28,831 nucleotides of DNA, from assembly GCA_036507075.1 (NCBI GenBank), contig DASXQR010000170.1, forward strand, positions 1-28,831, in the 5' to 3' direction. The stretch is from Acidobacteriota bacterium (lineage in GTDB: Bacteria; Acidobacteriota; UBA6911; JACQSX01). How positions within the stretch are numbered: position 1 is the first letter of the stretch; each line of letters begins with the position of its first letter. This document shows, piece by piece, positions 1,419 to 3,603 of the stretch. A model generated the notes under the pieces. That model did no database searches, was not told the DNA's origin, and was given only the letters and a program-made list of their open reading frames with translations. Made by a program: the position numbers and the translations under genes.

Positions 1419-2452
1419 CCTACCAAAGCCGGACTTTGCAGCGTGCGGTTTTCGAGCTTCAGGTACGGCTGCAGCTTTTCCATTAACGCGGAGAACTGCA
1501 ACGGGTTGAGCGACTGAGCACCGTCGCTGAGCGCATGTTCGGGGTGCGGATGCACTTCAATCATCAGCCCGTCGCAACCGGCAGCCACGGCGGCGCGCGA
1601 CATGGCGGGTATCAGCGATCGCACCCCCGTGCCATGTGTCGGATCCACGATCACGGGCAGGTGGCTCAATTCTTTGAGCAGCGGAACGGCGGAGAGATCG
1701 AGTGTATTGCGCGTCTGATCCTCGAAGGTGCGGATGCCGCGTTCGCACAAAATAACATTCGGATTGCCGTGCGAGAGGATGTATTCGGCCGACATCAGTA
1801 GTTCCTTGACCGTGCACATCATGCCGCGCTTCAATAAAATTGGTTTGCTGGTCTTGCCCACACCCTTGAGCAGTGAAAAATTCTGCATGTTGCGCGCGCC
1901 GATCTGCACGATATCGGCGTATTCGGCCACCAGCGGAATATCTTCAGCCCCGAGCACTTCGGTCACGATGGGCAGCTTTGTCTTTTCCCGGGCCTTGGCG
2001 AGCAGTTCCAATCCCTTCTTCTCCAGGCCCTGGAACGAATAGGGTGACGTGCGGGGTTTGAATGCTCCGCCGCGAAGGATGTTGGCGCCCGCCGCTTTGA
2101 CCGCGTGGGCCGCATCCAGTATCTGCTGCTCTGTTTCCACTGAGCAGGGACCGGCCATGACGGCAAATTGTCGCGATCCGATCTCCACATTCCCGACCCG
2201 GATAGTTGTAGGCTGCTTGCGTAATTCACTGGAGGCCAGCTTGTAGGGCTTCATAATCGGGATGACCGCTTCCACTCCTTCAACCAGCGCCAGCCCCAGC
2301 AACTCTTCACGACCGCGTTCATCTCCGATTGCGCCAATCACGGTGCGTTCGACGCCGTGAATTGGGTGCGACTGGAATCCAATCACCTCAATTTGATTAC
2401 AGATGAACTCAATCTGTTCCCTGGTGGCGCCGGGTTTCATCACAACAATCAT
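1415..2452 (-). CDS. aroF: 3-deoxy-7-phosphoheptulonate (DAHP) synthase, type I-beta, with N-terminal regulatory domain
   Basis: MIVVMK N-terminal domain; motifs [69 protein letters not shown] upstream. Confidence 0.95.
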
Positions 2453-2515
2453 AAAAACTCCTCGATGTTTTCGTTCAATCTGGCTTTCAGAGGATAGAAC
2501 TGCAGAATGAGAAAC

Positions 2516-2544
2516 GCGGAGAATCCAACTAGTGGATGCTCCGC
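2516..2544 (-). terminator. Hairpin overlapping the leader-peptide stop; candidate attenuator or pause hairpin
   Basis: Minus strand GCGGAG-C-ATCCA / CTAGT loop / TGGAT-T-CTCCGC, followed by GTTTCTCATT (weak U tract). Confidence 0.5.
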
Positions 2545-2612
2545 CAGGTAAAAAAGAAGTCCTGACGGCCGGAAGCGAAGTAGTTTTGGAAGGACCGCCG
2601 ATAACGCAGCAT
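2529..2612 (-). CDS. Putative aromatic-amino-acid leader peptide [27 protein letters not shown] (27 aa)
   Basis: ATG at 2612, TAG at 2529-2531. It has 5 Phe, 2 Tyr and 1 Trp in 27 codons and lies directly upstream of the DAHP synthase, downstream of a sigma70-like promoter. Confidence 0.7.
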
Positions 2613-2623
2613 AAATTTGGGAA

Positions 2624-2652
2624 AGGCTAAGGCAAGGCGGGCATAAAGTCAA
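2624..2652 (-). promoter_or_regulatory. Sigma70-like promoter for the leader-aroF transcript
   Basis: TTGACT (2652-2647), 17-bp spacer, TAGCCT (2629-2624); 11 nt upstream of the leader ATG. Confidence 0.55.
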
Positions 2653-2894
2653 GTTATTGGTCATTGGCCAGGGTCATTAGTCATCGGTCATCGGCATTGC
2701 TCATCGTCATTGGTCATCGGTTATTGGTAATGCAGAATTAAAGTTCAGGAGCTTGGTGTCTTGGTGGTAAAAAAATTGAACCACCAAAACACCAAGTCAG
2801 GTTTTCTTTATTTTGCGCACCCGATCCGCAGGAGCTTGTTTTTTACAAGGCATCCGATCAAAAGACGGATAACCAATGACCAATGACCAATGAC
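2653..2894. repeat. Inverted heptamer-array element (TCATTGG)n ... (CCAATGA)n enclosing a hairpin
   Basis: Degenerate TCATTGG/TCATCGG units at about 2653-2731, CCAATGA x3 at about 2870-2894, and an internal hairpin CTTGGTGTCTTGGTGGT...ACCACCAAAACACCAAG at 2752-2796. Confidence 0.85.
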
Positions 2895-2994
2895 GGTCGC
2901 TCGCCCAGAGTTCCCCTCCACCTGTGCGTTTATGGTAAAACTACTCTTGTTCAGTCATGACGATACAAAAGAGTACTTTCCGATAAGGAGGCCT

Positions 2995-3603
2995 ATGCCA
3001 TTTACACTTCCACCTTTGCCGTATCCTGCTGATGCTTTGGAACCTCATATCGACAAGATGACCATGGAAATCCACCACGGCAAACACCACAATGCTTACG
3101 TAACGAACTTGAACAAGGCTTTGGAGTCGGCGCCCGCGCTGGCGAACAAGAAAATTGAAGAATTGCTGGCGAACAACTGCTCCGCTGTTCCCGAAAATAT
3201 CCGCGCTGCGGTGCGTAATAACGGTGGAGGTCATGCCAATCACTCCATGTTCTGGCAGATTATGGGCCCCAAGGCGGGCGGCAAACCGAAGGGAAAGGTA
3301 GCAGAAGCGATTGATAAAACCTTCGGCGGCTTTGATGCGTTCAAAGAGAAATTTGCCGCGGCGGCCGTCGGCCGGTTTGGCTCGGGTTGGGCATGGCTGG
3401 TGAAAGACTCTTCCGGCAAGGTTGATGTTATTTCCACCGCCAACCAGGACAGTCCGATCATGGAAGGCAAGATCCCGGTAATGGGTCTCGATGTGTGGGA
3501 GCACGCCTACTATCTGAAGTATCAGAACAGACGCCCCGATTACATTGCCGCCTGGTGGAATGTCGTGAATTGGGAAGAGGTGGAGAAGCGTTTCACAGGT
3601 TGA
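2995..3603 (+). CDS. sodA: Superoxide dismutase, Fe/Mn family (Mn-type signature)
   Basis: [54 protein letters not shown] places the start at ATG 2995. Confidence 0.95.

Follow-up and report, generated by a model that had tools for sequence, protein, structure and literature searches.

[quoted passage not shown] As for DAHP synthase, the aroR-aroF attenuator of Corynebacterium glutamicum is said to have been originally described by Neshat et al. in 2014. There, a leader with Phe-Tyr-Phe stands before aroF, and the response is reported to be to Phe and not to Tyr (PMC11802643, PMC4046766). A short uORF with Phe codons before aroF, the uORFC-13-1 motif of Acholeplasma, was proposed to sense Phe, and a leader was predicted upstream of the Shewanella aroF (PMC8632094 and PMC2659441, respectively). 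Furthermore, mgtL-mgtA, corL-corA, tnaC and speFL are uORF-controlled Rho-dependent attenuators; the same source describes Rho sites as biased towards C over G and optimal at 60-90 nt, several of them being controlled by uORFs, and adds that shorter sites of ~30 nt can occur (PMC12360218).

In the open literature, with subscription journals mostly outside this coverage, we found no report of such leaders in Acidobacteriota or of Rho control of aroF. One article on leader genes that mentions Acidobacteria (PMC4833913) does not name aroF in its main text, and its supplements could list such leaders. Here we analysed a window of 28,831 nucleotides (the whole contig stretch of an Acidobacteriota bacterium), in which an aromatic-rich reading frame precedes aroF, and compared it with related loci.

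Layout and conservation of the aroF leader

The earlier note on this DNA had listed a promoter, a 27-codon reading frame with eight aromatic codons, a hairpin, a Shine-Dalgarno (SD) sequence and aroF, and each was found in its place (Table 1); the observation of leader elements upstream of aroF is confirmed. On the minus strand, the -35 box TTGACT (2652-2647) and the -10 box TAGCCT (2629-2624) are separated by a 17-nt spacer; the site was absent from the output of a promoter scanner, as its 8 of 12 consensus bases fall under the scanner threshold. Promoter and ATG are spaced by exactly 11 nt in all five copies known, and the base 7 past the -10 box is A in each of them, which is the basis of the predicted start. 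The aromatic codons are five Phe, two Tyr and one Trp. The aroF product scored above the cut-offs of both protein profiles given in Table 1.

Table 1. Features of the aroF leader region, in order of transcription
Feature	Position	Strand	Remark
Sigma70-like promoter (TTGAC, 17-18 nt, TAnnnT)	2624..2652	-	Same layout in 5/5 copies; putative function
Predicted 5-nt 5' UTR without Shine-Dalgarno	2613..2617	-	Predicted start is A of 2617
Leader uORF, 27 codons (19 in four relatives)	2529..2612	-	Length difference is an in-frame 24 nt
Phe codons -9, -8, -7 (counted from stop)	2550..2558	-	Phe-x-Phe invariant
Possible competing hairpin (2568-2561 with 2548-2541)	2541..2568	-	Weak; loop holds the Phe codons
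Conserved hairpin, stop codon in loop	2516..2544	-	Begins on the final base of the Trp codon
Tail rich in pyrimidines and poor in G; candidate Rho loading site	2464..2515	-	From sequence composition
aroF Shine-Dalgarno GAGGAG	2458..2463	-	From sequence
aroF, 3-deoxy-7-phosphoheptulonate synthase, 345 aa	1415..2452	-	NF006421 7e-150, TIGR01361 6e-121

Between 2449 and 2664 (minus strand) both frames shifted against the uORF are also open, one ending at a TGA that overlaps the aroF ATG and the other fusing to aroF. A frameshift or read-through fusion to aroF was rejected, with the spacing varying modulo 3 and stops closing the frame in other copies, including the 92%-identical contig L111. It should be added that a run of imperfect 7-mers (ATGACCA/ATGACCG type; 97 runs of at least three units in the genome) lies at 2660-2735, just before the promoter, and a long near-perfect palindrome at 2752-2796. 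The 17-nt arm of the latter has 89 exact genome copies and 299 with one mismatch; the palindrome is a dispersed repeat and not a part of the leader.

The aromatic content of the uORF ranked third among 2834 intergenic uORFs of its own genome (nominal p 8.4e-4, crude gene calls), and on its own stays within what chance would give genome-wide. Only two of these 2834 uORFs, the aroF leader among them, have a TTGAC/TAnnnT promoter at a distance of 4-16 nt from the ATG. It is conservation together with promoter spacing, not aromatic content, that sets the leader above chance. The hairpin at 2544-2516 had a folding energy of -15.8 kcal/mol when folded alone, and its 61-nt window a z-score of -3.3, with 2 of 200 shuffles equally stable. 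An Rfam scan of positions 2300-3000 gave 17 weak matches, all below gathering scores and with no leader family among them.

Within the same family, three of the four other genomes have the aroF orthologue, and the leader precedes it in all three; the fourth is 77% complete. Their leader peptides are MSGYALSYRPFRFSWRGIR, MSSYAYLLLAFCFSWRGIR and MNGRIYSLTVFRFTGRGIR, and the metagenome contig L112 provides a fifth copy, close to MSGYALSYRPFRFSWRGIR. The closest aroF relatives, 83% identical, come from Acidobacteriota/Acidobacteria records. The three relative genomes have different genes upstream of the leader, and the window has a different one again, which indicates that the leader belongs to aroF. 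A 30-letter pattern of codons and hairpin, with up to three mismatches, had hits in 4 of the 137 class genomes, one per genome and all in this family, and the same leader was absent from 25 aroF loci of other families; both tallies include the unpublished genome G015, counted as a negative, and nothing positive is claimed from it. The same pattern returned no matches on viral contigs. The scope of the leader is one small genome family.

Invariant in all five copies are TTGAC and TAnnnT, the 11-nt spacing, the ATG without SD, the Phe codons -9 and -7, the hairpin that encloses the stop within its loop, and the pyrimidine-rich tail. Phe-x-Phe is retained in the window genome as well, where its codons are unpaired within a loop. 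Trp at codon -5 is kept in four copies and replaced by Gly in genome G002, while Tyr, found in every copy, lies 12-24 codons ahead of the stop; in four copies it occupies codon 4, where both Tyr codons are used. Five of the last nine codons vary, and all these differences change the residue, none being silent, so that the RNA and the Phe codons, rather than the peptide, are under constraint. The same observation weighs against an arrest peptide in which a C-terminal W-R-x-I-x would sense a free metabolite in the exit tunnel, as in TnaC; the C-terminal residues are alike across copies, and we nevertheless regard this reading as highly improbable. Among sequencing runs, X5 yielded one 151-nt contig (depth 2.5) with the last 15 codons, Phe codons included, unchanged, and with nine substitutions and two offsetting indels in its upstream part; by hand, three of these changes were silent and one turned Tyr4 into Phe. 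Runs X2-X4 had no coverage of the 3' part of the uORF or of the hairpin, and the 3' comparison is thus that of the X5 contig.

In the alignment of the regions upstream of the aroF orthologues, proposed in the earlier note as a check, the conserved uORF with aromatic codons was borne out (Phe-x-Phe in 5/5), and the expected covariation of the hairpin was not. In the hairpin, 58 of 60 cells are paired, with one compensatory pair and two one-sided changes, and 102 of 500 shuffles reach the same score; this covariation is not significant. The five copies all come from one family and are hence not independent. Such few and related copies, along with an aromatic content within genome-wide chance, would be compatible with a conserved 5' structure in which the reading frame is incidental and non-regulatory. 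Against it stand the invariant position of the ATG, a frame kept open through an in-frame indel, invariant Phe codons, an aromatic codon 4 in four of five copies served by both Tyr codons, and the identity of the gene preceded, aroF. We consider a non-regulatory frame quite unlikely, and a functional aroF leader very probable.

Probable sensed amino acid and predicted position of the ribosome

That one leader would integrate Phe, Tyr and Trp, as initially suggested, was not supported. Trp is missing from one of five copies and lies inside the hairpin arm, and Tyr is found at -12 to -24; three conserved codon types with stalls acting in the same sense, as a multivalent sensor would have, were not observed. 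The more general proposal, a uORF with aromatic codons that regulates aroF, survives in part: the uORF is conserved and probably regulatory, with only Phe-x-Phe invariant. Phe is likely the main signal, and Tyr may be a weaker second input.

In G002, the copy with no Trp codon, trpE, trpA and trpD were not found. A loss of the Trp codon through loss of trp genes was considered and set aside, as hisIE, rho and the adjoining block are absent too and an assembly gap is likelier. In G000 (C124, 46634-57296) and G001 (C112; L253, L254), trpE overlaps the end of hisIE, and the trp cluster is closed by a second aroF and a chorismate-mutase-like gene, with no leader; in G001, rho adjoins the cluster.

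When Phe -7 occupies the A site, the hairpin starts 11 nt past the P-site codon's first base in each of the five copies. Stem-loops at this distance sit at the mRNA entry channel, where they can slow A-site binding (PMC7282821), and strong pausing was attributed to some stem-loops only (PMC8861025). For a footprint of 11 or 12 nt, a ribosome stalled at Phe -9 or -7 leaves the hairpin all or most of its energy, whereas a 14-nt footprint at Phe -7 about halves it. In most settings a ribosome at Trp -5 leaves no more than a third of the energy; one at the stop leaves none. The suggestion that a ribosome stalled at the Phe tract or Trp would block the hairpin is therefore doubtful: it agrees with a Trp stall, which melts the hairpin, and partly with the 14-nt footprint at Phe -7, and disagrees with a Phe stall at 11-12 nt.

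Only 24-25 nt separate the stop codon from a would-be point of intrinsic termination, so that in rich medium a ribosome trailing the polymerase would keep the hairpin from forming. Since a ribosome waiting at the second Phe codon, 11 nt away, would leave the hairpin intact, the closed form represents the ON state more probably than a terminator, and only in this case would the sign be right for a biosynthetic gene. Nascent folds of all five copies also contained a competing hairpin that joins the Phe region to the 5' arm, in another register in the window genome; it did not exceed shuffled or recoded controls in strength, 5-57% of these being as stable.

Output signals and proposed mechanism

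After the stem comes an invariant G; there is no U-run, and 8 nt contain just 3-5 U in each of the five copies. The hairpin plus U-run of classical attenuators was thus not found, nor were terminator-like sites between 1000 and 4000 of the window or a second conserved strong hairpin after the uORF in the copies compared. Among 206 strong post-stop hairpins, taken from a random 2500 of the 4805 gene calls of the same genome, at least five U followed in 13 and at least four in 33. U-runs after hairpins being this scarce, a weak U tract is compatible with weak intrinsic termination here. In such a case the hairpin would act as a weak intrinsic terminator, blocked by a ribosome stalled at the last Phe or Trp codon, and several findings suit it: the hairpin is stable and conserved, its U content is in the upper range for the genome, it is weakened by a stall at Phe -7 if the footprint is 14 nt and by one at Trp -5 whatever the footprint, and Trp is retained in 4 of 5 copies. 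However, a stall at the invariant Phe -9 leaves the hairpin whole, which is the wrong sign; G directly follows the stem; Trp is absent in G002; and with the stop in the loop, 24-25 nt from the end point, a ribosome in rich medium would, judging from known footprints, cover the 5' arm. We therefore hold an intrinsic terminator to be rather unlikely.

Of the first 30 nt of the tail, 21-26 are pyrimidines across the five copies, contig L111 having 22; the mean in 2997 comparable windows of the genome is 15.5, and 5.8% of them reach 21. Before the aroF SD, 40-50 nt of RNA are free with the hairpin closed and 53-64 nt when counted from the stop, lengths that straddle the 60-90 nt optimum of Rho sites; the 53-64 nt hold 15-18 C against 8-14 G. 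A weakly structured stretch of ~60 nt with more C than G thus follows the uORF, as in Rho attenuators.

Our preferred reading, with a probability of roughly 0.45 for the mechanism as a whole, is that the leader senses Phe at Phe-x-Phe and attenuates aroF in a Rho-dependent manner, with no intrinsic terminator. From the observed layout, conservation, 11-nt spacing, absent U-run and C/U-rich tail we infer the following regulatory steps. Transcription would start ~5 nt before the uORF, and Phe-x-Phe would read charged tRNA-Phe. When Phe is scarce, the ribosome would pause at the Phe codons immediately 5' of the hairpin. The latter would remain closed and conceal its C-rich 3' arm; as no more than 40-50 nt of RNA would then lie bare ahead of the aroF ribosome-binding site, transcription would continue. 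When Phe is ample, the ribosome would unwind the hairpin, terminate at the stop within the loop and depart, exposing the 53-64 nt past the stop together with pyrimidine-rich codons, where Rho would load and terminate transcription. Stalling at Trp would instead melt the hairpin, an effect opposite in sense to that of a Phe stall.

Several points speak against this mechanism. Rho may still load on 40-50 nt, since shorter sites of ~30 nt can occur; the hairpin could refold after release of the ribosome and hide its 3' arm again; and the halved hairpin energy under a 14-nt footprint at Phe -7 suits the intrinsic terminator. The same geometry would equally serve mRNA stability, with the stalled ribosome and closed hairpin shielding the U-rich tail from an endonuclease. 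In favour of this, the tail is unstructured in the relatives; against it, the tail is partly structured in the window genome; protection from an endonuclease being conjectural, we rate a stability effect as very improbable.

The earlier note had also allowed for Rho-dependent or translational control. This caveat fits better than a terminator, though its translational half fared poorly: masking of the SD by the hairpin 3' arm or by the Phe tract was neither conserved nor above controls, and conserved masking relieved by a stall, as in the poly-Cys type, was not found. In translational attenuation of this mycobacterial type, the Phe tract or the 3' arm would mask the aroF SD until a ribosome stalls. 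It has a precedent (10.1101/834739), and in the window genome the Phe tract pairs with the SD in the best fold and opening of the SD is 3-6 kcal/mol costlier in the free leader. In the other four copies, however, this difference ranges from -2.0 to +0.1 kcal/mol; in none of the five is it larger than with a shuffled tract, and freeing the 3' arm alters SD opening by 0-1 kcal/mol. Translational attenuation is accordingly improbable. As a separate observation, a small hairpin in L031, L032 and L112 pairs bases around the aroF start codon with codons 4-5 in folds and may damp translation.

As for the factor that Rho-dependent attenuation would need, rho is full-length in G000, where it is above the TIGR00767 cut-off, and in G001, and partial at a contig end in G004. 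It was not found in the leader-bearing genomes G002 and G003. For G002 this points to an assembly gap because the whole block neighbouring rho is also missing; G003 is 63% complete.

Related leaders and comparison with known systems

Among 111 distinct aroF loci with at least 200 nt upstream, an aromatic-rich uORF was present in 25, compared with 7.0 expected from shuffles; the 25 include two members of the window's family and at least two loci, L048 and L144, that we presume from their motif to be T-box leaders. Of the 25 loci, 17 had a crude terminator, 12 had all three residues and seven had both. Aromatic leaders before aroF are thus common, and leaders that may sense all three aromatic amino acids exist elsewhere. 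In another family of the same class, six loci (L012, L013, L022, L024, L026, L028) carry different aroF leaders, Phe-rich (..AFFWLYF.., ..AFFVRFFF..) or Tyr-rich (..CYRYYYC.., ..GYYYYSY..), followed by a hairpin and a U-rich run, and by sequence these appear to be classical attenuators. At L037, L038, L040, L143, L164 and L181, Phe, Tyr and Trp are clustered upstream of aroF, mostly with terminator-like hairpins, L164 having 10 aromatic residues in 10 codons; these loci are better candidates for three-way sensing than the leader in the window.

Sister leaders in the family, searched for by eye, were absent before trpE (2 loci), ilvB (4), hisG (5), leuA (5), a leuA paralogue (4) and prephenate dehydratase (4), and two other aroF-like genes of the window genome had no leader upstream. 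It is possible, though on balance doubtful, that the leader represents a two-codon Rho attenuator reading tRNA-Phe, near-leaderless, with a hairpin at the entry channel gating on the supply of Phe-tRNA, and the only leader-peptide control found among the checked amino-acid genes of the family. If Rho dependence and the entry-channel geometry were true, two codons would suffice for amino-acid sensing, and screens for terminator hairpins would overlook a class of attenuators.

By published descriptions, the leader resembles C. glutamicum aroR in standing before DAHP synthase and in having Phe-x-Phe; it differs in phylum and in the middle codon, which is Phe, Arg or Cys in the Acidobacteriota leader. 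With uORFC-13-1 it shares a short uORF with Phe codon(s) found only before aroF, whereas the Acholeplasma motif possesses a ribosome-binding site and what looks like an intrinsic terminator, both lacking here. In the proposed mechanism it would be similar to mgtL and corL in that translation of the uORF decides access to the Rho site and its completion promotes termination. The signals of mgtL, corL, tnaC and speFL are, however, Mg2+, free Trp or ornithine, while that of the aroF leader would be charged tRNA-Phe, with Rho as the putative factor. Like the leaderless poly-Cys ORFs of mycobacteria, it has an SD-less uORF, few sensing codons and no intrinsic terminator; those ORFs mask the downstream SD, and such masking is not conserved in the aroF leader (10.1101/834739). 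With pheL and trpL it has in common end-product codons near a hairpin and a short uORF before a pathway gene, and unlike them it has neither a U-run terminator hairpin nor an Rfam match. The leader would work like a ribosome-sensed attenuator, yet lacks the terminator of the classical family. Attenuation of DAHP synthase via aromatic codons is already known; what is new is its compact, terminator-less form in Acidobacteriota.
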